Shown here piece by piece: positions 11,506 through 63,947 of a stretch of DNA of 64,000 nucleotides. A model generated the notes under the pieces. The model ran no database searches. It saw nothing but the letters and a program-made list of their open reading frames with translations, and was not told the origin of the DNA. The DNA is from Bacillota bacterium. GTDB lineage: Bacteria > Bacillota > Sulfobacillia > Sulfobacillales > Sulfobacillaceae. The stretch spans positions 6-64,005 of the forward strand of contig JAJYHT010000031.1 in the NCBI GenBank assembly GCA_021784595.1, written 5' to 3'. Both the position numbers and the translations under genes were made by a program. Numbering within the stretch: position 1 is the stretch's first letter; each line of letters starts with the position of its first letter.

Positions 11506-11545
11506 AAACAGCAGGATGTGCGTGATACAGGGAGGAGGGGTCCTC

Positions 11546-12553
11546 ATGAACCTAAATGTGTTGTGGTTTGTCCTAATAGGAGTACTTTTTGTAGGATACT
11601 TCTTTTTAGAGGGTTTCGATTACGGTGTCGGAATGATTTATCAATTTCTTGGGCATTCAGACACCGAGCGACGTGTCGCCTTAAACGCCATTGGCCCCAC
11701 TTGGGGGGCTAATGAGGTGTGGTTGATTACAGCTGGAGGAGCTATTTTCGCAGCATTTCCAGAATGGTATGCCACCCTATTTAGCGGGTTTTATCTGGCT
11801 TTAGTGCTGATGCTGTTGGGTTTAATCGCCCGGGGCGTGGCGTTGGAGTATCGCAGCCGCCACGACAACCCGGGGTGGCGGCGCATGTGGGATTGGGCGT
11901 TGACGATAGGCAGTTTCATTCCTGCTCTGTTGTGGGGGGTGGCGGTAGCCAATTTAGTGCGCGGGGTGCCGATTAATAGCCAAATGAACTTTACTGGCAA
12001 CCTGCTGACGCTGTTGAATCCCTACGCCTTGTGGTCAGGGTTAGCCATGGTGGTAGTCTTCTTGGCCCACGGAGCCTATTTTCTTAGCATGAAGACCAGA
12101 GGCATGATAAGTTATCGTGCCAAACAAGTGGTTAAACCGCTGGGCTATGGTGCCGTGGCCATGGTGCTGGTGCTGTTATTGTGGACCGCGACTTTAAAAG
12201 ATTTGCGGCTTGCCGCAGTTCCGGCGCTGGTCGGTTTGGCAGCTCTAATCCTCATAGCGGCAGCGGTGGTGGCGATGACAAAAAATCGCATCCGGTGGGC
12301 GTTTTTCCTTCACGGCGCCGGCATTGCGCTTTTAACGGTGTCATTTTTTGCCGCCATGTTCCCGCGGGTAATGATTTCCAGTTTAAACCCACAGTGGAGT
12401 CTTACCATCTACAATGCGGCATCCAATAGCTATACCTTGCAGGTGATGACTATTGTGGCCTTGACGATGGTGCCGATTGTGCTGGCATATCAGGTGTGGA
12501 CTTATTGGATTTTTCGTCGGCGAGTGGGCACCAAAAGCTTCATGGAATATTGA
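11546..12553 (+). CDS. cydB: cytochrome bd ubiquinol oxidase subunit II
   Basis: LEGFDYGVGM, GPTWGANEVWLITAGGAIFAAFP. Start taken at ATG 11546, downstream of GGAGGAGGGG. Confidence 0.92.
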   Translation: MNLNVLWFVLIGVLFVGYFFLEGFDYGVGMIYQFLGHSDTERRVALNAIGPTWGANEVWLITAGGAIFAAFPEWYATLFSGFYLALVLMLLGLIARGVALEYRSRHDNPGWRRMWDWALTIGSFIPALLWGVAVANLVRGVPINSQMNFTGNLLTLLNPYALWSGLAMVVVFLAHGAYFLSMKTRGMISYRAKQVVKPLGYGAVAMVLVLLLWTATLKDLRLAAVPALVGLAALILIAAAVVAMTKNRIRWAFFLHGAGIALLTVSFFAAMFPRVMISSLNPQWSLTIYNAASNSYTLQVMTIVALTMVPIVLAYQVWTYWIFRRRVGTKSFMEY

Positions 12554-12759: not shown

Positions 12760-14142
12760 ATGTTCAATCCGAGCAATGCAGCGAGAGGCTGGCGGTACCG
12801 GATTACTGCCACTGTTTTGGCTATGGCCGGAGTGCTTGCCACCATTGTGGTTTATAAACACTACATTATGAATTTGCATCATATTCATGGTGACAAGCTG
12901 TTGTATTTGGCAGTGGTGTTGATATTTTTCACCGGCGTGTTCTCCTTTGTAGTGTTCGGTTTATTGGAAGGACAGCAACGGCGTTTAGCTGAGGTCAACA
13001 ATGAACTGCAGCGCCAGCGCGACATTTTGCAAGGATTGTGGGACGCCACCGGCGTGGTGGCTAGTCTTCCGGAGATGGATGGTGTGCTGCAACGCATTGT
13101 GGATGTCTCCAGGCCATTATTTGGCGCCGAATACGCTGCCTTGGGGGTCTTGAACGAGGATGAACCAACCCGCATTCGTCAATTCATTACATCGGGGTTG
13201 TCGGAAGAAATGCGCAAGGCTATTGGAGACTTGCCAAAAGGGCACGGACTTTTAGGCGAAGTGATTCGAACCAAACAAGTTTTACGTCTGGCCGATTTGG
13301 CGTTGCATCCCGCATCGTCGGGATTTCCGCCTCATCACCCGGCCATGACAAGTTTTTTAGGCGTGCCGTTGCTTTACCGAGGGGTCATTGTTGGGCATCT
13401 TTATCTAACGAACAAGCATGGCGGCTTCACCGCTCAAGACGAGATGCTGGCTCAACTGTTTGCCCGGCAAGCGGCAGTGGTGATTTCTAACGCCCGGTTG
13501 TATCAGGGACGGGAAGAGTGGGCGACCGTACAAGAGCGGGAACGGATTGGACGCGAGTTGCACGATGGAGTGTTGCAGACGTTGTACGGTTTGAATTTGG
13601 CTCTGGATTTCCTTTTGGACTCAGAGCAGTCTTTAAGCGATACCGCACAGCGCGAAATGACTCGAATTACCGAAACGTTAAGTCTGACCATGACCGATAT
13701 TCGCATGTATATTCAAAGTTTAGGATCGTCACCAGTGGACTTTCAAGTAGCCGTAAAGGATATGTTGCAGCGCTCGGGAGGATTGCAGGATATCCAACTG
13801 GAATTCCTTGATTCAGAATATCTTTCGCTCAACCCTGAATTGATTCATGATCTGGTGATGTCGATTCAAGAAGCGGTGTCCAACGCCCGTCGGCATGGTC
13901 AGGCAGACCACATCGCGGTCGGTTGGAAGTCTCCCGAGGGGCCATATTTTTTGGTGTGGGTCAAAGACAATGGGGTAGGGTTTGATGCCACAATCAGTCC
14001 GCGGGAGAACCATTTTGGGCTAACCAATATGCAACGTCGTACCGAACAGTGGCACGGCGAGGTCCGGTTGCAAAGCCAGCCTGGGCAGGGAACCACGGTA
14101 GAATTCCGGATTCCTAAAATCGGCGACGCTCAATTGATGTAG
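12760..14142 (+). CDS. membrane GAF-domain sensor histidine kinase (HisKA_3/NarX-type)
   Basis: Two N-terminal TM helices. GAF-like block (HPASSGFPPHHPAMTSFLGVPLLYRG). H-box ERERIGRELHDGVLQ. HATPase N and G boxes. Confidence 0.9.
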   Translation: MFNPSNAARGWRYRITATVLAMAGVLATIVVYKHYIMNLHHIHGDKLLYLAVVLIFFTGVFSFVVFGLLEGQQRRLAEVNNELQRQRDILQGLWDATGVVASLPEMDGVLQRIVDVSRPLFGAEYAALGVLNEDEPTRIRQFITSGLSEEMRKAIGDLPKGHGLLGEVIRTKQVLRLADLALHPASSGFPPHHPAMTSFLGVPLLYRGVIVGHLYLTNKHGGFTAQDEMLAQLFARQAAVVISNARLYQGREEWATVQERERIGRELHDGVLQTLYGLNLALDFLLDSEQSLSDTAQREMTRITETLSLTMTDIRMYIQSLGSSPVDFQVAVKDMLQRSGGLQDIQLEFLDSEYLSLNPELIHDLVMSIQEAVSNARRHGQADHIAVGWKSPEGPYFLVWVKDNGVGFDATISPRENHFGLTNMQRRTEQWHGEVRLQSQPGQGTTVEFRIPKIGDAQLM

Positions 14143-14173
14143 CGGTGTAGGAGAGAAAGGGGTAGGCGTATTT

Positions 14174-14827
14174 ATGCCTGAAGAAATAATTCGCGTAGTG
14201 ATTGTAGATGATCACGAAGTCGTGCGGGTAGGGTTGAAAAACCTTATCGATTTGCAGCCTGACCTGACGGTAGTGGGCGATTATGCGACGGGACAAGAGG
14301 CCATCGACAAGGTTCCCCATCACGCCGATGTGGTGGTGTTGGACGTGCGCCTGCCGGACAAGAGTGGTTTTGAGGTGTGTCGGGAAATCAAGGAACAGGA
14401 CATGAATGTCCAAATTATCATGTTAACCTCGTTTGGACAGGACGAAATGGTGCTAGACGCCATAAATGCGGGCGCATCAGGATATTTGCTGAAAGAAGCC
14501 CGCGGGCATACGGTGATTGAAGGCATTCGGACCGTAGCGCAGGGAGGATCGTTGTTTAGTCCGCAAGTAACCGGGGCATTGTTCCAACGGTTGCGCTCAA
14601 TGCACGGCTCGGCTGATCCGATTGAAGAGTTGACTGAAAACGAGAAGAAAATCTTGTCGTTTGTGTCGCAAGGGAAAACCAACCGCGAAATCGGCCAGGA
14701 ATTGTTTCTGAGCGAAAAGACCATCAAACATTATGTGAGTAGTATTTTGAGCAAGCTGGGTTATACCCGGCGCTCCGAAGCTGCCGCGCATTTCGCGCGA
14801 TACCAAGCGGATCGCCGCCGTTCTTAG
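14174..14827 (+). CDS. NarL/LuxR-family response regulator
   Basis: REC domain (VVIVDDH, VVVLDVRLPD) plus a LuxR HTH (LTENEKKILSFVSQGKTNREIGQELFLSEKTIKHYVSSIL). Confidence 0.92.
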   Translation: MPEEIIRVVIVDDHEVVRVGLKNLIDLQPDLTVVGDYATGQEAIDKVPHHADVVVLDVRLPDKSGFEVCREIKEQDMNVQIIMLTSFGQDEMVLDAINAGASGYLLKEARGHTVIEGIRTVAQGGSLFSPQVTGALFQRLRSMHGSADPIEELTENEKKILSFVSQGKTNREIGQELFLSEKTIKHYVSSILSKLGYTRRSEAAAHFARYQADRRRS

Positions 14828-14837
14828 GGATCATTGA

Positions 14838-14954
14838 TCAATGGTGATGGGTGAGTCGATAGATGCCCCAGATAACCAGTGCCCAAATTCCGACTTGCCA
14901 TAGCCCCATGGCAAGCCATGCGTTCATATGGCTGAGCGTTTGCCAGGCCATCAT
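14838..14954 (-). CDS. possible 38-aa single-TM peptide
   Basis: MMAWQTLSHMNAWLAMGLWQVGIWALVIWGIYRLTHHH, preceded by AAAGGAGG 5 nt upstream. No homology recognised. Confidence 0.25.
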   Translation of the reverse strand: MMAWQTLSHMNAWLAMGLWQVGIWALVIWGIYRLTHHH

Positions 14955-15261
14955 GGGAGCCTCCTTTTGGTCCGTTCCCAGCTGGTGATGTTTGTCTTCT
15001 TGGATTTCACTATACCAACTGGCGATGCCGTCTACAGGGCCCATACGATCCCTCCGTATGCAGAAAAGGACCCCGTTTGATGTGTCCTATCATACGAAGC
15101 CGGGCTCTTGTCGGCGTGGTCCAAAAGGTCCTGAAATTTGGGACCATTGGGTCCATTGTGTTTGGCCTTCTTCAGCATGTATATCCCTGTGTGCCGTTCT
15201 TACTCATGGCGGACATATCTTGTGGGCATTCTGGGAATCATATCCGGCGAGGTGCCCTGCT

Positions 15262-16860
15262 ATGAATCCAGAATTTAGCAAAGAACTGCAAACTCTACTA
15301 AAGCGCTTGAATCAAGATATTAACGGGTGGACGGCGGCATTGGGACAGGATCCGTCGGCCCCCGCCGATCAATATGTGCCTGGTGTGGAGGCCGCTTATC
15401 AACGCCTTAAAGCAGGCATGGGCAAAAGTTCGGATGTGCTGTTGCGAAAAATTGAGGTGCCGTCATGCCCCGCAAGTCCTGTTTTGATCGCGTGCATCGA
15501 TGGAATGGCAGATACTCAAATGGTCGACCAGGATATCATTCAGCCGTTGATGGCGACCGAGAAAGAACCCAGCACTTGGGATCGCAATACCATGACCCCG
15601 GTTCACATCACCAAAGAGACGTCCTGGCCCAAAATTTTGCAGGATTTGGCGGCTGGCAATACCATGATTTTTGCCCCTCAATTGAATTTTGTTTGGGTAG
15701 TGGACACGGTGAAATATAAGCAGCGGGCGATTGAGCGGCCACAAACTGAGCTGGCGGTGCGAGGCACTGAAGAGGCGTTCAACGAGATTCTCTTGACCCA
15801 AAAAAACCAAATTCGCCGCCATCTGCTAAGTCCTACCCTGCAGTTTCATGACGTTACCATTGGCCGGATACAGCACACCACGGTGTCAGTGGCCTATATA
15901 GAAGACGTGACTAACCCGGCTTTAGTGGACGAGGCGATTCATCGTTTGAAAGCGATAGTGATTGATGGGGCAGCCAATTCCACTACGATTGCGGGACTCA
16001 TTCGCGATCATCCCCGCTCCATATTTCCCACCATGCGCGCTACCGAGCGCGTGGACATCGTCATTTGGCGCCTGTTGGAAGGCGCCGTGGTCATTCTAAC
16101 CGAGGGCGATCCGTTTGCCCTTATCGCGCCTTCGCCGTTGGTAGACTTTTATCGCACTTCCATGGACTATTCCAGTTCCTGGATAGATAGTAGCTTTGTG
16201 CGCGTGATCCGGTTTGGTGGCTGGATTCTTGGGCTATATCTACCAGCCATGTATATCGCGTTAGCTGATGTTAACCCGAGCGTCCTACCGTCCGAACTTT
16301 TTATCGTCATGCAAGGAAGCCACGCGGGACTGCCATTTCCTCCTCCGGTTGAAATTGTACTGATGATTTTGATAATTGAGATTTTAAGGGAGGCAGCTTT
16401 ACGGTTGCCTAAACCATTAAGTACGACGTTGGGCACAGTAGGAGCGATTGTAGTGGGCACATCTGTTGTCAAGGCGGGCTTAGTTGATCCTCAAATCATT
16501 GTAATCATAACGCTTACTGCGCTGAGCCTTTTTTCCACGCCTGTCTATGAATTGACCGGGAGTTGGCGCATAGTAGGGTTTGGACTCCTGTTGGGTGGAG
16601 CATTCTTAGGTGTGTTGGGTATAGTGATTGTGACCATGATGGTTTTGGCGGTGCTGATTGACATGCAAAGCTTTGGCGCACCCTATTTTGCTCCGTGGGC
16701 ACCGTTTCGACCAAGAGATTGGAAGGACAGCATAGTACGGGTGCCATGGACTGATTTTACAACGCGTTGGCACAGTACCCGCGCGCTTCAGATTCAATGG
16801 CGGGACCCCACCAAAGTTCGCTCGCGTCCCCACTTGCTTAAGCGGAGACGTTCATCATGA
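15262..16860 (+). CDS. spore germination protein, GerA (A-subunit) family
   Basis: ELAVRGTEEAFNEILLTQKNQIRR and C-terminal TM helices are typical of GerAA/GerKA. Start taken at MNPEFSKEL (15262). The upstream 90 codons of the tracked ORF look non-coding. Confidence 0.85.
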   Translation: MNPEFSKELQTLLKRLNQDINGWTAALGQDPSAPADQYVPGVEAAYQRLKAGMGKSSDVLLRKIEVPSCPASPVLIACIDGMADTQMVDQDIIQPLMATEKEPSTWDRNTMTPVHITKETSWPKILQDLAAGNTMIFAPQLNFVWVVDTVKYKQRAIERPQTELAVRGTEEAFNEILLTQKNQIRRHLLSPTLQFHDVTIGRIQHTTVSVAYIEDVTNPALVDEAIHRLKAIVIDGAANSTTIAGLIRDHPRSIFPTMRATERVDIVIWRLLEGAVVILTEGDPFALIAPSPLVDFYRTSMDYSSSWIDSSFVRVIRFGGWILGLYLPAMYIALADVNPSVLPSELFIVMQGSHAGLPFPPPVEIVLMILIIEILREAALRLPKPLSTTLGTVGAIVVGTSVVKAGLVDPQIIVIITLTALSLFSTPVYELTGSWRIVGFGLLLGGAFLGVLGIVIVTMMVLAVLIDMQSFGAPYFAPWAPFRPRDWKDSIVRVPWTDFTTRWHSTRALQIQWRDPTKVRSRPHLLKRRRSS

Positions 16861-17951
16861 AATCACGTAGCCAGTTATTGGCGATTCTCGGGATGGGCTT
16901 GCTGCTGATTGGCATCGCAGGCTGCTGGGATGATGAGCCCGATACCCTTCGCGCCAACGCACTGATTTTAATGGTGTCACACAAGGCCGGTGAAAAATCA
17001 TGGAATTGGCGCTTTTATTTCCCTAATCCCACCGTTACGGTCAGCAGTTTGTCTCAAATCAAGCCGGAGGAAGAATTTTACACCACGTCAGTACAAGCCC
17101 CATCCCTGGAGCAAGCCTACACCCAGGTGCAGCAGCATTTGGCGCGTGATCTATATTTGGGACAACTAGAAGTCGTGATAGTTTCCGATACGCTTACTAC
17201 AAAAGATTTGGCCAGTTTTCTCAATGCGTATAATCGCGAGGGAACGTTGCCCAAAACGGCATATATTTTGGTGGCTTCCTCTCCTTTGTCAAAAATGGCG
17301 GTTGTCACACCGCAAGTATCCATTCCCGCGGTATATTGGGAAAAATACTTTGACTGCAAAGACTGTCAGCCGGAACTTTTGGCGCACCCCATTTGGAAAG
17401 CCTGGGACGATATCGTGACCCCGGACATGTCACCAGCGATACCCTACGCAGGGTTCGATAAAATCGCTCAATTGGCGGTATATCGCAGCGTGGGATCTCC
17501 GGTAATTTTTAGTCGAACTGAAACTTTAGGGTGGGCCTACTTAATGGGAAAGGTCAAAAAAGAGTCTTTAAGCATCATCTCTCCCGTGGGGACCGTTACT
17601 TTAGGGCGCATCCATGGCACAGTTCATAGTCGGGTTGAAGCGGTGAATCAGCATTTGCAGGCGTTTGTCCAGATTCATCTTACAAGCGATGTGGCTCAGT
17701 GGGAATCTTCTGCAGCCATGACCAACAACACTCTGTCCCGTATCCAAACTTTGGCTGAACACCGTGTGTTGTTGGAGTGTATAGCGGCCATTAATAAGGC
17801 CAACATGACACATACCGATCCGTTTGGATATGGGCGGCGGCTGTCATTTGAGCAGGATGGGCCCCCATCTATGGCCCAAGTGCATTGGGAACAGATCGAT
17901 GCGCAAGTATCGGTGACGATGCAAATTCGAACAAGTGGAGGTAATGTCTAA
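16857..17951 (+). CDS. Ger(x)C-family germinant receptor lipoprotein
   Basis: ATGA overlap with gerA. Lipobox LLLIGIAGCWD. Size (364 aa) and position fit a C-subunit. Confidence 0.8.
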   Translation: MKSRSQLLAILGMGLLLIGIAGCWDDEPDTLRANALILMVSHKAGEKSWNWRFYFPNPTVTVSSLSQIKPEEEFYTTSVQAPSLEQAYTQVQQHLARDLYLGQLEVVIVSDTLTTKDLASFLNAYNREGTLPKTAYILVASSPLSKMAVVTPQVSIPAVYWEKYFDCKDCQPELLAHPIWKAWDDIVTPDMSPAIPYAGFDKIAQLAVYRSVGSPVIFSRTETLGWAYLMGKVKKESLSIISPVGTVTLGRIHGTVHSRVEAVNQHLQAFVQIHLTSDVAQWESSAAMTNNTLSRIQTLAEHRVLLECIAAINKANMTHTDPFGYGRRLSFEQDGPPSMAQVHWEQIDAQVSVTMQIRTSGGNV

Positions 17952-17992
17952 CGGGACCTGTCGAGCCAATTTCTAGAGGACAATACTTTTTG

Positions 17993-19063
17993 ATGGTTAC
18001 CGTATCAGTGGTGGCGGGGGGCGTCTATCTTTGGCCGCAGTATGTGGTAAAAGCCGAAGGGACTAATGGGGTCTGGGCGCTGTTGACAACAACAGGTCTA
18101 GCCTTGGGCGTCATGACTTTGCAGGTTCTATGGGTCAAGATGACAAAGAAAACGCCTTATGCTCTCATGGTGCGCGATACTTTGGGCGTGGTGGGATTGT
18201 GGGTGGTAATGCCTGTTACCGGACTGTTTTGTCTGATTATTGATGGCATCTTGCTCTTCTTGTTTGGCGCTATGCTTCATGTCTTTTTTTATCCAATGAC
18301 TCCTGAAATTGTCATGATTGGTACCATTGACGTGGCTGCAGTATGGATTGGCATTCGTACTCTCAGCACGGTTGCACGTAGCATCCAATTTTGGTTTCCC
18401 ATTATTATGGTGTCCCTGGCGATGATTCTTCTTTTTAGTTCCCGCGATATTCGGTTCCTCAGTTCTATAGTACCTACACCAACCTTGGTGGTACCACAAT
18501 GGCTACGGGCAAGTCTAGGAACATGGTTTTTATATGCGAATGGGGCAGTGGTGGCTAGTTTAGCGCCGCATGTTCGATGGCCTGGGCGTGCCAGACCCTT
18601 GCTCTGGACGGGTTTGGCGATTGGATTTCAAGGGAGCATTTTGTTAATTTTATTTGCCATAACGCTGGCCACCTTAGGTGCTCCTGCCGTGGCGCAATTA
18701 CAGTGGCCGATGATTTATGTGTTTTCTTTGGTTAGCGTGCGAACATTTTTTTTTAAAGGAATTGGGATGTTTGTACTGATTACTTGGGCTAGTGCCTTAG
18801 TTCTCTATCTTGCAGTACATCTCTTTTGCTTTTCCTGGAATATCCAAGCCATGGTGGATGCATCATTCAGAGCGCGAAGGTGGATTGTAGTCGCGGCAGG
18901 CGCTGTCGTATTTGGAATCGCGGTATTGATTCCTTCTAGCATTAAGGCTGAACAGCTTTTATTTGGATTAATGAATCCGGTGGACTTAAGTTGGTCATTG
19001 GGCGTGCTGATGTTGTCGGTCATGGTGGCATGGATTCGCAGACGAAGGAGTAAATCGCAATGA
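17993..19063 (+). CDS. spore germination permease, GerAB/GerKB (B-subunit) family
   Basis: ~10-TM protein of 356 aa. Blocks typical of Spore_permease: YPMTPEIVMIG, LQWPMIYVFSLVSV. The A-C-B gene order matches gerK. Confidence 0.8.
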   Translation: MVTVSVVAGGVYLWPQYVVKAEGTNGVWALLTTTGLALGVMTLQVLWVKMTKKTPYALMVRDTLGVVGLWVVMPVTGLFCLIIDGILLFLFGAMLHVFFYPMTPEIVMIGTIDVAAVWIGIRTLSTVARSIQFWFPIIMVSLAMILLFSSRDIRFLSSIVPTPTLVVPQWLRASLGTWFLYANGAVVASLAPHVRWPGRARPLLWTGLAIGFQGSILLILFAITLATLGAPAVAQLQWPMIYVFSLVSVRTFFFKGIGMFVLITWASALVLYLAVHLFCFSWNIQAMVDASFRARRWIVVAAGAVVFGIAVLIPSSIKAEQLLFGLMNPVDLSWSLGVLMLSVMVAWIRRRRSKSQ

Positions 19064-20514
19064 CGGGGAAATGGGTGGTCATCTATACAGGGGTGAACAT
19101 GGCATTGGCGGCCCTGATGGTGATTGGACTGATTCTTGCCTGGCGTTTGGTGGCCATACGTTTAGAACGTGATTTAGGGCACAATCCCAAAGGCACGCTG
19201 TGGGAATTTCTCTTCAGCCTTAGAGCCAACTCTCGAGCAGACTTGGCCTTAACCATGCAGCGGGCGGAACAGGGAAAGCCTGCCGAACATCCTCTAGGAT
19301 CGGCTCCTGATGTCATGTGGCTGGACCACATCGGATTTGATCCCGCCACGTTGCATCCGGTGCCCAAAGATCGCACCACGCCGGTGAATTTGGCGGTGCG
19401 ATTAGGGCCTAAGGCGGCAACTCCGTTGCCGTTGTCGTTGCCGATCCTGATCGCGCCAATGGGATATGGCGTGGGCTTAATCGAGGAGGCGAAGATTGCC
19501 TTGGCTCAGGCGGCCAGTTTAACGGATACCGCAATTGTTAGCGGTGAAGGACCCTTTTTGCCCGAAGAGCGTGCGTTTGCGACCAAATGGGTCTTGCAGT
19601 GGAGTCGAGCTGAATGGGCGCACCAAGAGGCGGTGGTGCAATTGGCGGACATGGTGGAAATCCAAATGGGCCAGGGATCGGAAGTGGGCATTGGCATTGT
19701 TAAAAATCCACTAACCGTGCCTGCACGGGTGGCGGATGCAGCAATGGGGCCAGTGGTTATCCATGCCATTTCACCTCAATCGGTTCCCCGTTGGATTGAA
19801 AAGATTAGGCATATCAAATCAGGTTGTCCAATTGGCATAAAACTTCCGGCCAACCAGCATTTAGAGCAAGATTTGCATCTGGTGACGCAGTGGGGAGTGG
19901 ATGTGATCACATTGGATGGTTCAGCTGCTGGCAGTGCAGGCAGTCCCGCTGTCATTTCGGATCATTTTGGGCTGGATGTGGCGCTGGCCATTCATAGGGC
20001 TCATCGATGGCTCACTCAAGCGGGCGTTCGGCAACAAGTCAGTTTGGTGGCTTCGGGCGGCATTCATGATGCCGCCGACGTGGCTAAAGTCTTGGCATTG
20101 GGGGCCGATGCAGCCGCTATCGGCTCGACCCTCTTATTTGCCTTGAGCCACGAGCAGGTGGCCGAGCATTTGCCGGGTTCGCCGCCCACGGCCGTGGTGA
20201 TGGCGCACGGACAGGCTAGCTCTCCGCCGCAGCTCAATTTGGATAAAGCCAGCGAACATGTCACGGCTTGGTTTGAGGCGACGCGAGCCGAACTGACTTT
20301 GTTGTGCCAGGCTTTGGGTGTGGACTGCATTCAAGATCTTGGTCCCCAGCATCTCGTGGCACGCACTTCTGAAGCTGCCCGTCGATTTGACATCGCCAGC
20401 GATGGAGAACCGGTAAATTGGGGACAGGTGAAAGAAAGCCTCGGTGAGTTGGTAGATCACTACGAAATAGTCAATGATATCTTAGGCCGCGTGGTGCAAA
20501 AAATTCAAACGTAG
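19060..20514 (+). CDS. membrane-anchored FMN-binding glutamate synthase family protein (GltB domain-2 / YerD-like), diverged
   Basis: ATGA overlap with the gerB stop. N-terminal TM helix. The GltS FMN-barrel skeleton is visible (APMGYGVG..SGEGP..MGQGSEVGIG..IGIKLPA..LDGSAAGSAGSP..ASGGIHDAADVAKVLALGAD), but several consensus residues are substituted. Confidence 0.8.
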   Translation: MTGKWVVIYTGVNMALAALMVIGLILAWRLVAIRLERDLGHNPKGTLWEFLFSLRANSRADLALTMQRAEQGKPAEHPLGSAPDVMWLDHIGFDPATLHPVPKDRTTPVNLAVRLGPKAATPLPLSLPILIAPMGYGVGLIEEAKIALAQAASLTDTAIVSGEGPFLPEERAFATKWVLQWSRAEWAHQEAVVQLADMVEIQMGQGSEVGIGIVKNPLTVPARVADAAMGPVVIHAISPQSVPRWIEKIRHIKSGCPIGIKLPANQHLEQDLHLVTQWGVDVITLDGSAAGSAGSPAVISDHFGLDVALAIHRAHRWLTQAGVRQQVSLVASGGIHDAADVAKVLALGADAAAIGSTLLFALSHEQVAEHLPGSPPTAVVMAHGQASSPPQLNLDKASEHVTAWFEATRAELTLLCQALGVDCIQDLGPQHLVARTSEAARRFDIASDGEPVNWGQVKESLGELVDHYEIVNDILGRVVQKIQT

Positions 20515-20515
20515 T

Positions 20516-20542
20516 GTCCCCCGGACTGTGAGGCCGGGGGAC
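20516..20542. terminator. hairpin between convergent genes (possible bidirectional terminator)
   Basis: gtcccccgg-actgtgagg-ccgggggac: a perfect 9-bp GC-rich stem. The flanking U/A tracts are weak. Confidence 0.5.
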
Positions 20543-20547
20543 GTATG

Positions 20548-21813
20548 TTAAAGTTTTTCTGCCACGAATTCCGCCAATGGCATTCCCCAGTTGGGAACTT
20601 TCCCGCGAGTGCGAAAAAACAGATCTTTATACTGGTTTTTAAGCAAATAGGGGAGGTTTCCGGTCTTGAGAACTTGTTTCTTTCCTCCGTACCAAGCATC
20701 CGAGTTGATGTAAAACGCTTGATGATGACCCATGTCACCAATGCAGTTGACGCTGGGCTTAAAGGGCAGCGCCCCTTCATCTTTGGATAGTTGGCCCACG
20801 TCCATGGCAATCTGACGGGCCACGACAGCCGCTTGAAGATGGGCAATCCATCCCAGCTTGGGGACTGCCAAAGCCGAGGCATCACCAGCCGACAGAACAT
20901 TCGGATATTTGGGATTGCGCATATTGCGGTCGGTCACGATGAAGCCTTGGTCGTCACTAATAGGCAAACCTTTCAAAAATTGATGAGGAACCCAGTCCGG
21001 GAAGATAATCTTGAGCTCTGCTTCCACGCTGGAGCCATTTTCAAACTCGACGCCCTCTGCGGTCAGGCGTTTGATGTCATGAGTGCGGTTCATGTAGTGA
21101 TAGCCCTTTTTGCTGGCTAAGCTCAGCAACTGGTCAACCACCTCGGCGCCAACGTCCTCAGCAATCATTTCGGCGGGGGTGAAAATAGTGACTTGCTCGG
21201 GACCTTGATATCCGTGCTCTTTGAGCCAACTTCCCATTGACATCCCCATTTCGACCGGCGGTCCCTCGCACGCCGCTTCGGCGGTGGGTACGATGTCAGT
21301 AGTTTGGGTGCCTTGGTGAAACCGGGCCGAGCCGACGGCCACGGGACCGCCTTTATAGTCGTGGAACAGAAAATGGCGCAGACGATTGCCGTAATAGGTG
21401 TCAGTCACGGTGTGACCAAACTCGGCAAAACCCTCTATCTGGTCAAAGGCTAAACGGTTTCCCAACGCGACCACCAGATAGTCATAGTGAATCGAGGTAG
21501 GGGCCGCTCCCGGTCTTTCATTGGGCAGATAATCGACTCGCTGGCTTTCGATGTCGACGGCCTGGACTTGGCCCAAGATGAAGTCGGTTTTGTCCTCATC
21601 CAAGACACCGGCCAGACTCATGTGCAACGATGCTGCCGGATCCCGATTACTTAACGCTTCCAGCCCAATATTGGGCACAAACAAAAGATACGATTTTTGG
21701 TCGATTACACTGATTCGAACAGCATCCCCGGCTAGGGCATGCAATTGCTGAGCAACCTCCAAGCCAGCAAAATTTCCGCCCAATATCACGACATGCGGGG
21801 CTTTTGGCTTCAT
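20548..21813 (-). CDS. sqr: sulfide:quinone oxidoreductase-like FAD-dependent oxidoreductase
   Basis: N-terminal VVILGGNFAGLE dinucleotide fold. Cysteines in AACEGPPVE and SVNCIGDMG sit where SQR redox cysteines are expected. AAGGAG RBS before ATG 21813. Confidence 0.85.
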   Translation of the reverse strand: MKPKAPHVVILGGNFAGLEVAQQLHALAGDAVRISVIDQKSYLLFVPNIGLEALSNRDPAASLHMSLAGVLDEDKTDFILGQVQAVDIESQRVDYLPNERPGAAPTSIHYDYLVVALGNRLAFDQIEGFAEFGHTVTDTYYGNRLRHFLFHDYKGGPVAVGSARFHQGTQTTDIVPTAEAACEGPPVEMGMSMGSWLKEHGYQGPEQVTIFTPAEMIAEDVGAEVVDQLLSLASKKGYHYMNRTHDIKRLTAEGVEFENGSSVEAELKIIFPDWVPHQFLKGLPISDDQGFIVTDRNMRNPKYPNVLSAGDASALAVPKLGWIAHLQAAVVARQIAMDVGQLSKDEGALPFKPSVNCIGDMGHHQAFYINSDAWYGGKKQVLKTGNLPYLLKNQYKDLFFRTRGKVPNWGMPLAEFVAEKL

Positions 21814-22021
21814 TGCATCCACTCCTTTACAGTCAAGCAAGGTCTACGCCCAAATCAGACCTATTATGACCACAATACATGAATTTTATGGATCTTGTAA
21901 GTAGCGGTAAGAACTAGCTCCTAATGGGGAGTTGTTACAATAACTACGTGATGTAGGGTATGTCTTATCCATATACCGGAAACACTATGCGACAAGATAT
22001 CACCAATCGGGAGGCACCCCT

Positions 22022-23416
22022 ATGACGGATGTGGGTTTAGCACGGTTACAGTTTGGTGTTACGACCATTTACCATTTTCTTATTGTTCCTCTAACTATTG
22101 GCACCGCATTGCAACTCGCGATACTAGAAACGCTGTACTGGAAGAATCCGACGCCCAAGAAGCGGGCCTTGCTTGACTTTTTTGGACGTCTGTTTTTAAT
22201 TAACTTTGCGCTCGGCGTGGTCACCGGTATTTTGCAAGAATTCCAATTCGGAATGAACTGGTCCAACTACTCGCGGTTTGTGGGTGATGTGTTTGGCGCT
22301 CCGCTTGCCGTAGAAGCCTTGGCTGCTTTCTTTTTGGAATCGACTTTCATTGCAGTGTGGATTTTTGGATGGGATTGGGTATCTCCTCGGATTCATGTCT
22401 GGTCAATGTGGCTCGTGGCGGTTGGCACCAGCCTTTCGGCATTTTGGATTCTGACCGCCAATTCTTTTATGCAAGAACCCGTTGGCTATATCTTGCGGCA
22501 TGGCCATGCCGAAATGAATAACTTTTTTGGACTGCTGGCCAATCCCCAACTGTGGGTCGAGTTTCCCCATACCGAAGTGGCGGCCTTGGCCACCGGCGCA
22601 TTTTTTGTGGCTGGGATTAGCGCCGTATTTTTACGAAAGGGCGAACACGTGGAAGAATTCCGGTTATCCTTTCGGGTCGCGATTTTAACGGCAGCGGTGA
22701 CCAGCATTTTGGTGGTCATCATAGGGCATGAACAGGCCCAGCACTTGATTGTGGCGCAACCTATGAAGATGGCGGCGTCTGAGGCTCTATACCAAACCAG
22801 TGCGCTTCATGCGCCGTGGACTTTGGTGGCCTGGGTTGATCCAGTGCGTCAAGTGAACCACTGGGTGATTGCAATTCCGTACATGCTGTCTATTCTTGCC
22901 TACAACAGTTTATCGGGGCGGGTCTTAGGAATAAATGCCCTGCAGCGGCTATACGTGCATCGTTATGGTCCGGGATGGTACGTACCGCCGGTGGTGTCAA
23001 CGTTTTGGACGTTTCGCATCATGATCCTGATTGGGTTTGTTATGGCCGGTTTGGCCCTATGGGCGATATGGCTTGAGAACCGCGGGGTTCTTTTGAACTC
23101 GCCCCGTTTTCTTAGAGTCATGACCTGGGCTATTGGGTTGCCATTGCTGGGCAATATTATGGGATGGATTATGACGGAAGTCGGACGACAGCCCTGGATA
23201 GTGTTTGGATTGATGAAAACCGTGCGCGGGGTTTCTCCTACCGTTCCTATGGCTGACGTGTGGATTACGCTCATCGGCTTTGGCGGTTTGTATGGCATTT
23301 TAGGCTATATTGACGTCAAATTGTTGGTGAAATATGTACGGCTTGGTCCCCAGGCAGAGGAACCCGAAGTCACGTCACCCCCGATGTTTCATATCACTAA
23401 TCCCACGGATTCCTAG
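22022..23416 (+). CDS. cydA: cytochrome bd ubiquinol oxidase subunit I (second copy)
   Basis: 464 aa, collinear with the copy at 10111-11505. Identical blocks include LARLQFGVTT, GILQEFQFG and FWILTANSFMQEPVGY. Confidence 0.95.
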   Translation: MTDVGLARLQFGVTTIYHFLIVPLTIGTALQLAILETLYWKNPTPKKRALLDFFGRLFLINFALGVVTGILQEFQFGMNWSNYSRFVGDVFGAPLAVEALAAFFLESTFIAVWIFGWDWVSPRIHVWSMWLVAVGTSLSAFWILTANSFMQEPVGYILRHGHAEMNNFFGLLANPQLWVEFPHTEVAALATGAFFVAGISAVFLRKGEHVEEFRLSFRVAILTAAVTSILVVIIGHEQAQHLIVAQPMKMAASEALYQTSALHAPWTLVAWVDPVRQVNHWVIAIPYMLSILAYNSLSGRVLGINALQRLYVHRYGPGWYVPPVVSTFWTFRIMILIGFVMAGLALWAIWLENRGVLLNSPRFLRVMTWAIGLPLLGNIMGWIMTEVGRQPWIVFGLMKTVRGVSPTVPMADVWITLIGFGGLYGILGYIDVKLLVKYVRLGPQAEEPEVTSPPMFHITNPTDS

Positions 23417-23464
23417 TCGACTGATCGTATAGAGACCGAGAAAATTAAAAGGAGGCATGAGTGA

Positions 23465-24478
23465 ATGCACTTGCCCAGCGTATGGTTTGGATTGATTGCG
23501 GTGTTGTTCGTAGGGTATCTCTTTTTGGAGGGATTCGATTACGGAGTGGGCATTTTGGTGCCGTTTTTAGGGCATACCGACCAAGAGCGGCGTGCCTTGG
23601 TGGCGACCATCGGACCGGTATGGGATGCCAATGAAGTTTGGCTGATTACTGCCGGGGGCGCTATATTCGCGGCCTTTCCTAATTGGTACGCTACCTTGTT
23701 CAGCGGTTTTTATTTGGTGCTGGCGCTGCTCTTGGCAGCCTTAATTATTCGTGGAGTGGCTTTGGAATATCGCTCCAAGGATGATCGACCCAAATGGAGG
23801 GGACGCTGGGATGCTCTGTTGGTGTTTGGAAGCGCCACTCCTGCTTTTGTGTGGGGAGCGGCCATGGGCAATATGTTGCATGGAGTCCCCATCAATGCCC
23901 AGATGAATTATGTGGGAGGGTTCTTCAACTTGCTCAATCCCTATGCCGTGGTTGGGGGGATTGCCTCGCTCCTTCTGTTTACCCTGCATGGGGCGCTGTT
24001 TTTGTCACTGAAGGCGCCACACACCTTGGCTAAACGTGCTGATGAGGCAGCCTTTAAAATTGGCGGCCTGACGACGGTGTTTTATTTTGGATTTGTGGTG
24101 TTGAGCTATTACTTGGCCAACTTGCGGGTGCGGCTCGGTGTGGACCCTGGTCCCATCCCCGTATTGGCGGGGTTTTGCATGATTGCCATTCGTTTTGTGT
24201 TAAAACGCGGACTTCGCGGCTGGGCATTTGCGCTGACCGGCTCCACTATCGTGCTGTCTACTATCAGTGTGTTTTTAACGCTGTATCCCCGGCTTATGAT
24301 CTCGACTTTGAATCCACACTACAGCCTGACCATTTACAACGCGTCGTCCAACCCTTACAGCCTGAAAGTGATGACCATTGTAGCACTCTCGGTATTGCCG
24401 ATAGTGCTTGCCTATCAGATTTGGAGCTATTGGGTGTTTCGTAAGCGAGTCAGTCTGGAGGATACTTTTCACTATTAA
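23465..24478 (+). CDS. cydB: cytochrome bd ubiquinol oxidase subunit II (second copy)
   Basis: LEGFDYGVGILVPFLG, GPVWDANEVWLITAGGAIFAAFP. AAAGGAGG RBS. Confidence 0.92.
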   Translation: MHLPSVWFGLIAVLFVGYLFLEGFDYGVGILVPFLGHTDQERRALVATIGPVWDANEVWLITAGGAIFAAFPNWYATLFSGFYLVLALLLAALIIRGVALEYRSKDDRPKWRGRWDALLVFGSATPAFVWGAAMGNMLHGVPINAQMNYVGGFFNLLNPYAVVGGIASLLLFTLHGALFLSLKAPHTLAKRADEAAFKIGGLTTVFYFGFVVLSYYLANLRVRLGVDPGPIPVLAGFCMIAIRFVLKRGLRGWAFALTGSTIVLSTISVFLTLYPRLMISTLNPHYSLTIYNASSNPYSLKVMTIVALSVLPIVLAYQIWSYWVFRKRVSLEDTFHY

Positions 24479-27543: not shown

Positions 27544-28716
27544 TCATGGCATGAGGGGCAGCCAACCGGAAAAGATTTTATAGGCGTGGTTAAAGCAGGC
27601 TTTAGCCAGCGCGGATGAGATCCCGACATGTACCAATTCATGCGACCCTCCATAAAGCCAATCGCTCAGGGTTAATAATCCGCGACCGTAGCCCAGCCAG
27701 CCCACGTGAAGCACATAGGGACGCAATGGGGATGGCCTTTTTCGCTGTTGCACCGCGTAAAAATGGTGGACGGCGGTACGGGCCTGCAGCATGGCCATAT
27801 GTCCGATTTTAGGAAGGGCGGTGGTGCTGATGTCACCCACCGCATAAATATTGGGCCAGGTTCGGTGAGCCCCGTATTGATCGACAGGAATCCATCCATA
27901 TCCGTCATCAATTCCGCTGATGCGTGCTAACCGGGAACCCGGGTAGGGCGGAACCCAAATCATCTTTTCGGATGACAATGGCTTTCGATCGGTAAAGTAA
28001 ATGGCCGAATGACTAACCCGCTCATAGTGTGCATCCGTGACAAGATTAATCTTGCGCTTACAAAGTTCCGTAGCCAAAATCTCTTGGCTTTTGGGCCCCA
28101 AAAATTCACCGGGCACGGGTGCGGGTGTGACCACGGTTATGCTTACGTGGTCGCGCCGTCGTTGTTTTCTGAACCAGGCATCCAAAAGGAAACTGACTTC
28201 GAGTCCGGGTGCGTCCAATGAGCCCACCAGGTGCGGACGATCGGCTGGTGACTGTAGCAATGGACCGATCGCAATCACCAGCGAATGAAAGGGCTGTTGG
28301 ACGCGGTCCCCGGTTTCGCGCGCCAGATAATCCTCGCATACCCCACCATGCTCTGGACCCAGTCCAGGTATGGTCCGCCAACCCTGATCGCTCCCGGTCG
28401 CCACAAAGAGCGTGTCATAGGGCAGTGGAGGATGGCTGGCCAGATAGACGTGTTGCTGTTGCGGATCGATGCGGAAAATGCTGTCGCGGACAAAGTGTTG
28501 TCCTGCCTTCTCGCATCGCCGTTTCATAGCAATATGCCATTGGTCCGCTATGATAGGATGTCCGGCTGCCGCCATTACCAGCGATGGCCTGTAGGTCATA
28601 ACGGTCCACTGGTCTACGACCGTGACCGTTATCTCATGTTGGGAGAAGAGCTTATTGATCCAATAAGATACGGCCGAGCCGGCAAAACGCGCACCGAGAA
28701 TCACCACCTTATGCAT
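27544..28716 (-). CDS. SQR-like FAD-dependent oxidoreductase (type V-like N-terminus), lacking both expected redox cysteines
   Basis: VVILGARFAGSA, GGVCEDY, NIYAVGD. The expected Cys positions read VGSLDAPGLE and LHVGWLGYG. The start overlaps the upstream stop by 8 nt (ATGCATAA). Confidence 0.8.
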   Translation of the reverse strand: MHKVVILGARFAGSAVSYWINKLFSQHEITVTVVDQWTVMTYRPSLVMAAAGHPIIADQWHIAMKRRCEKAGQHFVRDSIFRIDPQQQHVYLASHPPLPYDTLFVATGSDQGWRTIPGLGPEHGGVCEDYLARETGDRVQQPFHSLVIAIGPLLQSPADRPHLVGSLDAPGLEVSFLLDAWFRKQRRRDHVSITVVTPAPVPGEFLGPKSQEILATELCKRKINLVTDAHYERVSHSAIYFTDRKPLSSEKMIWVPPYPGSRLARISGIDDGYGWIPVDQYGAHRTWPNIYAVGDISTTALPKIGHMAMLQARTAVHHFYAVQQRKRPSPLRPYVLHVGWLGYGRGLLTLSDWLYGGSHELVHVGISSALAKACFNHAYKIFSGWLPLMP

Positions 28717-30091
28717 GGCGTGAGTCTACCGCTTGTGGTTGCAGCAGAGTCACCTGGCGCTGAAGGCTAGAAATGAGACGTTGATATTCATCGATCAAAG
28801 CGGTCAATTGGACGGCCAGGCGTCCTTGGGAGGGAGGCTGCGCGGCGGGAATTCCCAATAGTCCGGCGGCTTGATTGGTTCGCGCATAGAGCACGCTCCG
28901 GTCGAGGTCCCCAAGGTCCTCGAGTCCTAAGGATTGCAGGATGACGCGCATATTCTTGGCAGTCGCATCGAACCACCGAGAACCCTGTAGCGCCATCTGT
29001 CCAATGTCGAGAGACGCTTCATTTTCTTGGTTCACCGCCCAGGGCAGGTGGGGACCAATATTGACGGCGTTGGCACCTAATGCCAACAGCTTGACAATGT
29101 CGGCTGCACTTACGATGCCGCCTGAGGCGATAAGGCTAATGTGGGACATGGCGTGCTGATCGATCCAGTCGCGGGCTCGTTTGATAGCGATGGCAGTGGG
29201 GATGCCAAACTGGTCAGACAGGTCTGAATTGCGTTGAGCCTCTGAGCCAGTGACCGTAATGAAATCGGGCGCCCATTGGATTACTGCTGCGAGATCAGTT
29301 TCCAAATGCTGGCTGGCCAGGATCTTTACGCCCACGGGAATGTCCGGATTCCCTCGGCGCAACTGGGACAACAACTGTGGCAGGGAAGAGGCACCCAGGC
29401 CAATAGGGCGTTGATGGGCTGACCAGCGTTTCACACGGAGCGGCAGTCGCTTGTGATTTTTCGCTGGCGTAGTCTTACGACTTTTTTGACCTAGGGAGAC
29501 CTCGGCCATGTCCGCCAGTTGAATCATTTCTCGGCTGGGTCCAGGCTGTCCGAGGTGCCATTGCAGGATCCAGTGTTCGGCATAGGCTCGCTGTGCTGGA
29601 AGGTAGGGGCCTGGCCCCGAAACGACGGCGGACCCTGCAACGCTGGAGATTTGAGCCAAAGCGAGTTTGGCGTCGATAGGAGATCCCATGCTATGGTAGG
29701 GCGCAATAAGCAGTGCAGGTAAGCTAAGGGCCAGCGGACGGCGAGCGCGTGATCCGATAATGGTGGACAGAGAAATCTCCTGAATCTGAGGAGCGGCTTT
29801 GGGATGGAGCGTTGCGGGATCAAAAGCCACTTGGTCGAGCAATGTCCGCCATGGCACTAAGGAGTTGATGGGTTTTAAATGGGTTCTGGATTCGGTTTGC
29901 CATGGGGCGACGTGTACTGTAACCAAAAGATCGTTTAAATTGATCCGAGACCATGACACCGCGAGGCGCTTCATGTTTGGGATGAGAAATCGTGTTGCCA
30001 AAAGTAAAGTGGTGAGGGCCGTTACCAAGCCTGTGATGGCGCCAACTGCCAAAGCCTCTAAAAGCGACACGTCCGCATTCCCCCATTGCAT
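28709..30091 (-). CDS. membrane-anchored FMN glutamate synthase family protein, second and more degenerate copy
   Basis: Paralog of 19060-20514 with the same TM-plus-barrel layout (IASGGIVSAADIVKLLALGANA). The GltS GxxGGTGA block reads TGSEAQRNSD. The start is uncertain: ATG 30091, or TTG 30133 as in the track. Confidence 0.75.
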   Translation of the reverse strand: MQWGNADVSLLEALAVGAITGLVTALTTLLLATRFLIPNMKRLAVSWSRINLNDLLVTVHVAPWQTESRTHLKPINSLVPWRTLLDQVAFDPATLHPKAAPQIQEISLSTIIGSRARRPLALSLPALLIAPYHSMGSPIDAKLALAQISSVAGSAVVSGPGPYLPAQRAYAEHWILQWHLGQPGPSREMIQLADMAEVSLGQKSRKTTPAKNHKRLPLRVKRWSAHQRPIGLGASSLPQLLSQLRRGNPDIPVGVKILASQHLETDLAAVIQWAPDFITVTGSEAQRNSDLSDQFGIPTAIAIKRARDWIDQHAMSHISLIASGGIVSAADIVKLLALGANAVNIGPHLPWAVNQENEASLDIGQMALQGSRWFDATAKNMRVILQSLGLEDLGDLDRSVLYARTNQAAGLLGIPAAQPPSQGRLAVQLTALIDEYQRLISSLQRQVTLLQPQAVDSRHA

Positions 30092-30193
30092 CAACACACC
30101 ATAGGGTTTGCCCAATTTACCCAGTTTATGCAATGTCGGCCTTCTTGCACAATTGGCCCGGTCGCTCTCTGGGATGGAGCGACCGGTTATTTC

Positions 30194-31348: not shown

Positions 31349-31521
31349 TGGATTGGTCCTCCTCATGCGATAAATTTGCATCTGCAATAAATATAACGCT
31401 AAGCAGCACGCGAGACATCGGCCAAATGGCGCAAACAACCTTAGTTCAAAAGGATATGGTGTCTTTACGGCTGATGCCGATAAGTTAAGCAAATGGGTGA
31501 TTATCGGGTGAGTTTGATCGT

Positions 31522-32703: not shown

Positions 32704-33126
32704 CAATCGGCCCTCCCCCTAACCTTGGTATGGTCGTTTGGGAATGCGATTATACGCACGGGATTAGAGGGCGAACAAATTTTTGGGCATCCGTAGGTGT
32801 GTTGCGAAGACGCACGGCTTGGGCCAGGCATGAGCGTGACCGCAAAAGGCTCCGTCAGACGAGACCAGGTGGATGCTCGGGAGTTGAACGTCAGTGGGCC
32901 TCGGACGAGGGTGACGAAAAGATAAAGACGTCATCAAAACCGGGGTCCTAAAAGTGCCGCGGGGGATCAGTGGAGTGTAGACCCCGGAAGTCCGCGAAGG
33001 GACGGGCAAAGTCCAGGAGATCCTGGTCGGTCTGCCGTCGACTCCTTCTCAGTGCGTAACTGGCTTGCTCCATCCGTCGTTATTCAAGAGAGGGGATCAT
33101 ACGGCTTCAGAGGATAAGGTGACATC

Positions 33127-63686: not shown

Positions 63687-63947
63687 TGCTTTTGCTCCCT
63701 CCATTCTATAAGCCAACGTTAATGTGTGCCCAAGTCTTTTATAGTATGCAGACAGCTTGGGTGGCAAATTCTTCTCTTCATAGTGCTTTAGAGTCAATCG
63801 CTCTGGGTCTAATGGTCCTTTGAGGTTCCCTCATTTGGCCACTGCAACTTAGGCCCAAGGATCCCTGCACCGTCTTCTAAAACGCGATACTCTCTAAGTG
63901 CGAAGCAACGAAAGCAAACAGCACTTATTTCAAGGAGGTTGACGAAC

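Follow-up and report, generated by a model that had tools for sequence, protein, structure and literature searches.

We describe a germinant receptor operon with an enzyme-like fourth gene in a 64,000-nucleotide (nt) stretch of DNA from a bacterium of the Sulfobacillaceae (GenBank assembly GCA_021784595.1, contig JAJYHT010000031.1; hereafter, the window). The operon encodes the A, C, and B subunits of a GerA-family receptor, followed by a gene, here called gene 4, for a protein with an N-terminal transmembrane (TM) helix and a barrel related to the flavin mononucleotide (FMN) domain of glutamate synthase (GltS). Judged from gene order and sequence conservation, gene 4 is a genuine and conserved part of one ger operon class and is translationally coupled to gerB. 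The comparative evidence for such a conserved enzyme-like fourth gene, which is new here, is solid. We favor, at a probability of roughly one half, a reading in which gene 4 would encode a forespore-made, quinone-linked flavin redox module tied to one receptor class.

A fourth gene in one class of germinant receptor operon

Operon coordinates were taken from a table of open reading frames (ORFs) and from direct reading of the junction sequence. The four genes form a single block on the same strand, with the following features:

15262–16860, + strand: gerA, A subunit of a GerA-family germinant receptor, 532 amino acids (aa); PF03323, E 4e-138, residues 48–502
16857–17951, + strand: gerC, lipoprotein C subunit, 364 aa; PF25198 and PF05504, both above gathering scores
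17993–19063, + strand: gerB, APC-type B subunit, 356 aa; PF03845, E 9e-13, above gathering score
19045–19050, + strand: AAGGAG, Shine-Dalgarno sequence for gene 4, read directly within the 3′ end of gerB, 9 nt upstream of the gene 4 ATG (19060)
19060–20514, + strand: gene 4, 484 aa; PF01645 (Glu_synthase), E 2e-41, residues 122–421
20508–20549, no strand assigned: hairpin between the gene 4 stop codon and the convergent gene; −26.9 kcal/mol, z −5.4

The domain signatures of a GerA-family receptor operon are present: PF03323 in the A subunit, PF03845 and TIGR00912 in the B subunit (the latter at E 6e-14, below the NCBIfam cutoff), and PF05504 and PF25198 together with a lipobox in the C subunit. 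The lipobox, IAGC, occupies residues 20–23 of GerC, within MKSRSQLLAILGMGLLLIGIAGC. The start codon of gerC lies within the stop of gerA (ATGA, 16857–16860), and the ATG of gene 4 lies within the stop of gerB in the same way (ATGA, 19060–19063). The gap between gerC and gerB is 41 nt when measured to the ATG of gerB and 38 nt when measured to an alternative TTG start at 17990, which is better spaced to an AGAGGA motif. These reads bear out the layout given by an earlier reading of the DNA made from the letters alone (the sequence-only reading), namely A-C-B-gene 4 with two ATGA overlaps and a 41-nt gap. A scan for sigma-70 promoters and terminators showed no candidate site at the gerB/gene 4 junction, and the overlap suggests that gene 4 is co-translated with the receptor subunits. 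None of 200 shuffled sequences folded as well as the hairpin at 20508–20549, which has no T-run and was hence not listed by a simple terminator scan; it is probably a bidirectional terminator shared with the convergent gene.

We scanned 80 genomic loci with the window proteins and then with iterated hidden Markov models (HMMs). In quick neighbor-joining trees, which carry no support values, the gene 4 family comprised a Sulfobacillia-specific clade (clade S) and a second clade (clade B). Homologues that are 43–68% identical to gene 4 were found in Sulfobacillus, Hydrogenisulfobacillus, and related metagenome-assembled genomes (MAGs), and homologues are named "FMN-binding glutamate synthase family protein" by NCBI. 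The sequence-only reading had proposed looking for the fourth gene in orthologous ger operons, and it is there: of the 24 clade S loci, 16 have the order gerA-gerC-gerB-gene 4, and these are spread over Sulfobacillus, Hydrogenisulfobacillus, and MAGs akin to them. Contigs annotated with Pfam show the same order in Hydrogenisulfobacillus filiaventi and in a MAG labeled Thermaerobacter. The 4-nt overlap of gerB and gene 4 is kept in 10 loci (L001, L002, L006–L010, L013, L015, and L018); elsewhere the junction has other short overlaps (L003, L004) or gaps of 26–32 nt (L020, L021). In H. filiaventi, the genes gerA, gerC, gerB, gene 4, and a UbiE-type methyltransferase gene overlap one another by 4–14 nt each.

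The junction is split in two species. Transposase genes (DUF4277/DDE_Tnp_1 and IS3-type rve) sit exactly between gerB and gene 4 in S. thermosulfidooxidans (L081, 3776–6925; L082, 5228–6925), and in S. thermotolerans (L016) a 4.5-kb separation at the same place is probably explained by transposase insertion as well. Separately, in locus L005 (6758–7974) an intact gene 4 has only short pieces resembling gerA and gerC in front of it, and gerB was not detected; possibly, a ger operon has decayed here while gene 4, a methyltransferase gene, and a gene for a flavoprotein resembling sulfide:quinone reductase (SQR) were retained.

Three other ger operons have the plain order gerA-gerC-gerB and no gene 4, two in the same MAG as L001 (L091, L092) and one in another Sulfobacillus (L093). 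The top orthologue group of the window GerA, at approximately 55–93% identity to it, consists of GerA proteins from operons with gene 4, and the GerA paralogues of plain operons with checked contexts are 44–50% identical to it. By this comparison, the gene 4 link is specific to one ger orthologue group.

Outside the Sulfobacillia, homologues at 30–41% identity are found in Desulfosporosinus, Desulfitobacterium, Moorella, Thermincola, Sporomusa, and others, and also in Paenibacillus, Brevibacillus, Aneurinibacillus, and Ammoniphilus. Every named host among the best matches is an endospore-forming member of the Bacillota; two MAGs are labeled otherwise, one of which has ger genes. As far as these matches go, the gene 4 family has so far been seen only in endospore formers. 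Several clade B homologues adjoin ger genes, in differing gene orders; those next to complete operons in Paenibacillus, Brevibacillus, Aneurinibacillus, and Ammoniphilus are 30–39% identical to gene 4:

Paenibacillus residui (L039): gerA-gene 4-DUF2071-gerC-gerB; checked Ger genes confirmed by Pfam
Aneurinibacillus terranovensis (L062): gene 4-gerA-gerB-gerC; checked Ger genes confirmed by Pfam
Ammoniphilus resinae (L079): gene 4-gerA-gerC-gerB; checked Ger genes confirmed by Pfam
Brevibacillus centrosporus and another Brevibacillus (L061, L074): gerA-gerB-gerB-gerC-gene 4; Pfam confirmation for L061
A Paenibacillaceae MAG (L076): gerB-gerA-gerC-gene 4; checked Ger genes confirmed by Pfam
A Paenibacillaceae MAG and Kroppenstedtia (L051, L073): convergent ger/gene 4 arrangements
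L046: gerA fragments adjoining a gene 4 homologue

In the gene 4 tree, these ger-linked loci are interspersed with unlinked ones. We compared the number of immediate adjacencies with a deliberately generous binomial null that gives each genome 10–50 ger operons. For the eight cases seen in 58 clade B loci, P lies between 1e-10 and 1e-4, and counting only the five independent architectures gives values between 4e-6 and 1.5e-2. Immediate adjacency to ger is enriched more than 10-fold over a generous expectation. The recurrence of the pairing in differing gene orders fits selection for co-expression or co-function, as judged from these arrangements, and not one inherited accidental fusion.

In the Moorella/Neomoorella loci L024, L026, and L031, the homologue has a gene for spore photoproduct lyase (TIGR04070, above cutoff) on one side and one for a D-Ala-D-Ala carboxypeptidase on the other, a spore-related neighborhood without a ger operon.

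Fold, motifs, and topology of the gene 4 protein

We modeled the gene 4 protein with AlphaFold2 (AF2) on an alignment of 59 sequences, which yielded a confident model (mean pLDDT 88.5, pTM 0.83). In the model, a long N-terminal helix (residues 2–39) and a short stretch of helix precede a beta/alpha barrel, and another long helix (residues 454–483) follows at the C terminus. The hydrophobic core of the N-terminal TM helix spans approximately residues 5–33. When searched against the PDB with Foldseek, the top structures were GltS FMN domains (1ofe, 7mfm, and 1ofd; E ~1e-16 to 5e-17), followed by FMN-dependent glycolate oxidase, flavocytochrome b2, IDI-2, and mandelate dehydrogenase. At the sequence level, gene 4 scores 142.7 bits against PF01645, for which the cutoff is 20.4. 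NCBIfam returned sub-threshold matches only; among those over the full length, the glutamate synthase large subunit scored best. A match to PF01070 (34.7 bits; cutoff 24.9) covers only residues 298–364, the phosphate-binding segment. Pfam, AF2, and Foldseek therefore agree with the sequence-only reading, which had described an N-terminal TM helix followed by a barrel like domain 2 of GltS.

The same reading had pointed out substitutions in the QGAKPG and GGTGA motifs, and these are real. In an alignment with B. subtilis GltA (PDB 7mfm), QGAKPGEGG becomes QGSEVGIGI and GGTGASP becomes AGSAGSP. The segment of gene 4 aligned to GltS residues 1102–1113, which hold the 3Fe-4S cysteines, reads HEQVAEHLPGSP and contains no cysteine. 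Neither Pfam nor the AF2 model shows an amidotransferase or central domain, and gene 4 has no gltB- or gltD-type neighbor. The position of the former GltS catalytic lysine is occupied by glutamate in 23 of 24 clade S sequences and is variable in clade B.

We computed residue profiles across 82 family sequences. About 20 positions are invariant in all family groups, including E49, R68, the SGEGP motif, D197, E200, Q205, K261, E269, D301, G333, G348-A349, H364, Q366, and E411. These invariants occur in ger-linked and unlinked members alike, across clades that share only 30% identity, and a comparison of the two sets for receptor-interface residues found no difference. Conservation extends to the region of the FMN-phosphate motif (K261, G333-G334, and G348-A349-D350), which suggests that gene 4 binds a flavin. 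Because the GltS residues for 2-oxoglutarate and glutamate are replaced throughout the family, the gene 4 product is not a GltS-type amino-acid enzyme. As far as residues can tell, the family is distinct within the PF01645 superfamily and incapable of GltS chemistry. It appears to descend from the FMN domain of glutamate synthase and to have its own conserved active-site set.

We applied the positive-inside rule to the 206 family members that have a hydrophobic segment at the N terminus. In 205 of them, Lys and Arg are more numerous behind the segment than ahead of it (mean 3.45 versus 0.42). Because of this bias, we predict an N-out/C-in topology in which the barrel lies on the cytoplasmic side, which in a spore means the core side of its inner membrane. 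In this orientation, the barrel probably does not bind germinants from outside. The suggestion in the sequence-only reading that gene 4 is an accessory subunit binding or processing an amino-acid germinant is therefore disfavored, both by this orientation and by the lost 2-oxoglutarate/glutamate residues.

No fusion of a gene 4 relative with a Ger subunit was found; the long homologues carry low-complexity tails instead. These are Paenibacillus-type proteins (L056, 7926–10961; P0201; P0205) with C-terminal tails of 300–500 aa made of repeats rich in Gly, Ser, Gln, and Arg.

Putative redox partners and competing explanations

In clade S, a gene for an SQR/NDH-2-like protein of the Pyr_redox_2 family adjoins gene 4 in practically every locus, whether ger is present or not, and the SQR-like tree and the gene 4 tree mirror each other. 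In three loci (L015, L020, and L081), the SQR-like gene is next on the same strand, giving the order gerA-gerC-gerB-gene 4-SQR-like, which is interrupted by an insertion sequence (IS) in L081. In many other clade S loci, a MenG/UbiE-like methyltransferase gene lies between gene 4 and a convergent SQR-like gene, and in L083 and L085 the methyltransferase gene overlaps the end of gene 4. A UbiE-type methyltransferase gene is also found divergent from a gene 4 homologue in an uncultured lineage. In the window, the genes of these types, and a second copy of gene 4, are as follows:

20548–21840, − strand: SQR/NDH-2-like Pyr_redox_2 gene, convergent to gene 4; PF07992; placed by the tree in a different SQR-like clade
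28709–30133, − strand: second gene 4 paralogue, 35% identical to gene 4 and more degenerate, amid SQR-like genes
31522–32706, − strand: type III SQR-like flavoprotein gene, orthologue (by tree) of the SQR-like gene adjacent to ger-gene 4; NCBIfam match
62970–63797, − strand: MenG/UbiE-like methyltransferase gene, orthologous to the one found directly after gene 4 in Hydrogenisulfobacillus and in many MAGs of Sulfobacillia

We rejected the convergent gene at 20548–21840 as the functional partner of gene 4, as it belongs to the other SQR-like clade and the co-evolving type is the gene at 31522–32706. The product of the latter has its best PDB match in the type III SQR of Acidianus (3h8i/3h8l; E 1e-32). 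We call it SQR-like only, because a tryptophan aligns to one catalytic cysteine of the Acidianus enzyme. The methyltransferase gene at 62970–63797 is matched by the HMM of cluster c7 at E 1e-100 and by TIGR01934 at E 5e-26, the latter below the curated cutoff. By the mirrored trees, gene 4 co-evolves with a type III SQR-like flavoprotein in Sulfobacillia.

The second paralogue has SGPGP in place of SGEGP and has lost the GSxGSP loop. It belongs to a minus-strand run (27544–32706) composed of SQR-like genes at 31522–32706 and 30194–31492, the paralogue itself, and an SQR-like gene at 27544–28716 that overlaps it by 8 nt. The paralogue is orthologous to the gene 4 members of ger-less gene 4/SQR-like pairs in L011, L016, and L043. 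In Bacilli, a different gene keeps company with the family: a DUF2071 (PF09844) gene lies directly 3′ of the gene 4 homologue in 10 loci from Paenibacillus and Brevibacillus (L039, L053, L058, L061, L064, L069, L070, and L074–L076), with ger adjacent or not.

Respiratory genes surround several of these loci. Two gene sets for cytochrome bd oxidase, as judged by sequence, flank the ger region of the window at 11516–12553 and 22022–24478, and cydBA lies directly upstream of the orthologous ger operon of H. filiaventi (L083), so that the ger-gene 4 block sits in a respiratory gene neighborhood. In Sporomusa rhizae (L087, 6001–8932), two tandem copies of the homologue lie between cytochrome c/COX1 genes and succinate dehydrogenase/fumarate reductase genes.

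We propose that the gene 4 product would be a flavin-dependent oxidoreductase anchored on the core side of the inner spore membrane. There it would act, in Sulfobacillia, with the type III SQR-like FAD protein, and often with the MenG/UbiE-like methyltransferase, on the membrane quinone or redox pool. The idea in the sequence-only reading that the gene links germination to redox state fits these conserved partners. The translational coupling of gene 4 to gerB would mean that its product arises in the forespore, when and where the receptor itself is produced. A sigmaG/F-like motif (GNATR-N17-18-CAnnnTA) is found just upstream of gerA in four loci (L001, 4146–4175; L002, 4156–4184; L020, 4074–4102; L021, 1044–1072) but is not matched upstream of gerA in the window; on the window + strand this motif occurs at a frequency of only about 0.03 per kb. 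Gene 4 could condition or gate the receptor according to the redox state of the membrane, or it could provide the first entry of electrons when the receptor fires.

A bolder form of this proposal, which we regard as doubtful, holds that a receptor class present in several orders of endospore formers forms one working unit with a flavoprotein that faces the core. In Sulfobacillia, an SQR-like quinone reductase and a quinone-type methyltransferase would belong to the unit as well. Exit from dormancy would then be gated by, or immediately coupled to, the redox state of the quinone pool in the spore inner membrane. If true, germination would include a redox or energy-substrate checkpoint, and spores of iron- and sulfur-oxidizing acidophiles could respond to inorganic electron donors, not to classical nutrients.

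Several observations weigh against a receptor-tied redox module. Approximately 45 of the 58 clade B loci have no ger gene within 8 kb, and because most clade B members lack a ger neighbor, the basic function of the family needs no receptor. Gene 4 and the SQR-like gene are intact downstream of the split in S. thermosulfidooxidans and in L016, and co-transcription with ger is therefore not obligatory. The partners depend on lineage, with the SQR-like protein and methyltransferase in Sulfobacillia versus DUF2071 in Bacilli, and in the window itself both the SQR-like and the methyltransferase partners have been relocated, the methyltransferase gene to approximately 43 kb from gene 4. The window counterpart of the sigmaG/F-like motif (~15212–15245) has a spacer of 21 nt and does not match. 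The sequence of the TM helix is not conserved within the family, which speaks against close contact with GerA or GerB within the membrane, and flavin binding is a prediction from motifs only.

Two alternatives seem unlikely to us, to a similar degree. The first is that the gene 4 product is, perhaps as a pseudoenzyme, a genuine structural component of the receptor, a fourth subunit that docks on the core-facing surface of GerA/GerB and directly tunes gating or the response to ligand. This would fit the loss of the GltS catalytic lysine, the restriction of the link to one ger orthologue group, the coupling to gerB in at least 10 species, and the position of the gene inside the operon of Paenibacillus residui, between gerA and gerC. 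Accessory proteins of GerAA-like channels also have precedents in the D subunits and 5AF/FigP (PMC12554149, PMC10903944). However, a structural subunit is difficult to reconcile with a TM anchor that is not conserved, with residue profiles shared by ger-linked and unlinked members, and with a family in which most members have no ger neighbor and none was found fused to a Ger subunit. The strong co-evolution with the SQR-like enzyme and the methyltransferase points instead to catalysis.

The second is that gene 4 is an ordinary respiratory or quinone enzyme of the membrane with no role in the spore, and that its linkage to ger reflects hitch-hiking in a respiratory neighborhood. The cytochrome bd genes on both sides in the window, cydBA in L083, and the oxidase and succinate dehydrogenase genes in Sporomusa would all be expected, as would the presence of the SQR-like partner with or without ger, the second paralogue in an SQR-like operon without ger, and the intact copies of gene 4 beyond the IS insertions. 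Hitch-hiking accounts poorly for the more than 10-fold enrichment of ger adjacency, which recurs in at least five gene orders in different orders of Bacillota, and for the persistence of the 4-nt overlap among orthologues at 43–68% identity. All named hosts are endospore formers, and the Moorella copies adjoin spore photoproduct lyase, which also speaks against an enzyme without a spore role.

A third possibility, that gene 4 is a decaying glutamate synthase-like remnant whose substituted motifs reflect loss of function, is highly improbable and was rejected: the QGAKPG, GGTGA, and Fe-S cysteine signatures are all missing and the second paralogue is visibly more degenerate, but the ORF is intact in every species examined, the model is confident, and the conservation pattern, with glutamate at the former lysine position in nearly all of clade S and some 20 other residues invariant between distant clades, identifies the substitutions as fixed features of the family.

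Known systems and the surroundings of the operon

Germinant receptors are currently modeled as nutrient-gated ion channels of A, B, and C subunits that work without metabolism, with small D subunits as the only extras. D subunits of the YfkS/GerUD type are small membrane proteins. In the receptor model, a GerAA channel is ringed by GerAB, with GerAC outside (PMC10903944). The operons are described as tricistronic, with an occasional D subunit that is encoded by an extra gene co-transcribed with A, B, and C, is thought to modulate germination, and is present in only some of the ger operons of a genome (PMC12554149). Gene 4 resembles the D subunits (YfkS of B. subtilis and GerUD of P. megaterium) in being an extra gene in only some ger operons. 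In contrast to these small membrane peptides, which have no enzyme fold, it encodes 484 aa with an FMN-type TIM barrel and has enzyme partners of its own. The SpoVAF/FigP accessory channel complex offers a precedent for a recently discovered partner of a GerAA-like protein that tunes germination (PMC10903944). FigP, however, is a polytopic membrane protein that takes the place of GerAB and is unrelated to gene 4 in sequence or fold, and the complex involves no redox domain.

The best match in sequence and fold is the FMN domain of the GltS large subunit (PF01645; 1ofd, 1ea0, and 7mfm), which shares with gene 4 the SGEG motif, Q205, K261, and the GG...GA(D/E) phosphate-binding region. Relative to GltS, gene 4 lacks the amidotransferase, central, and C-terminal domains and the 3Fe-4S cysteines, has glutamate for the lysine of QGAKPG and AGSAG for GGTGA, and has gained the N-terminal TM anchor and the long C-terminal helix. 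The same architecture of TM anchor and PF01645 barrel is found in stand-alone domain-2 proteins of COG0069 ("FMN-binding glutamate synthase family protein"), for which our literature searches found no reported link to ger operons. B. subtilis YerD, at most a putative member of the gene 4 subfamily, is the usual example of these proteins; yerD was mentioned in the literature only as a member of the SigB regulon. Class 2 dihydroorotate dehydrogenase, LldD, and mandelate dehydrogenase are likewise FMN TIM barrels at the cytoplasmic face of the membrane. Such quinone-linked FMN dehydrogenases have a respiratory/quinone gene neighborhood similar to that of gene 4, but only the phosphate-binding segment of gene 4 matches PF01070, and the resemblance is one of putative mechanism, an analogy and not membership.

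Full-text literature searches, which extended to germination in Sulfobacillus and to tetracistronic ger operons, did not turn up any ger operon described with a PF01645 or flavoprotein gene; the statement in the sequence-only reading that no flavoenzyme-like Ger partner is known thus held up. Our comparison points to a link between germination receptors and membrane redox chemistry that is undescribed in the literature, and gene 4 would be the first candidate for such a link. It reopens the old question of metabolic or redox input into germination. For the widespread TM-anchored PF01645 proteins, spores and quinone-linked partners would provide a first functional context.

Immediately upstream of the ger operon, at 12760–14827, are genes for a GAF-HisKA_3 histidine kinase and a LuxR-type response regulator. 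The pair occupies the same position in L001 and L002 and is on the opposite strand in L013. A small ORF on the − strand (14838–15044) is divergent from gerA. The last 38 aa of its product, MMAWQTLSHMNAWLAMGLWQVGIWALVIWGIYRLTHHH, contain one TM helix; the DNA for this part, which has an AGGAGG motif ahead of it, is strongly conserved in L001 and L002. This ORF may encode a small membrane peptide associated with the operon.

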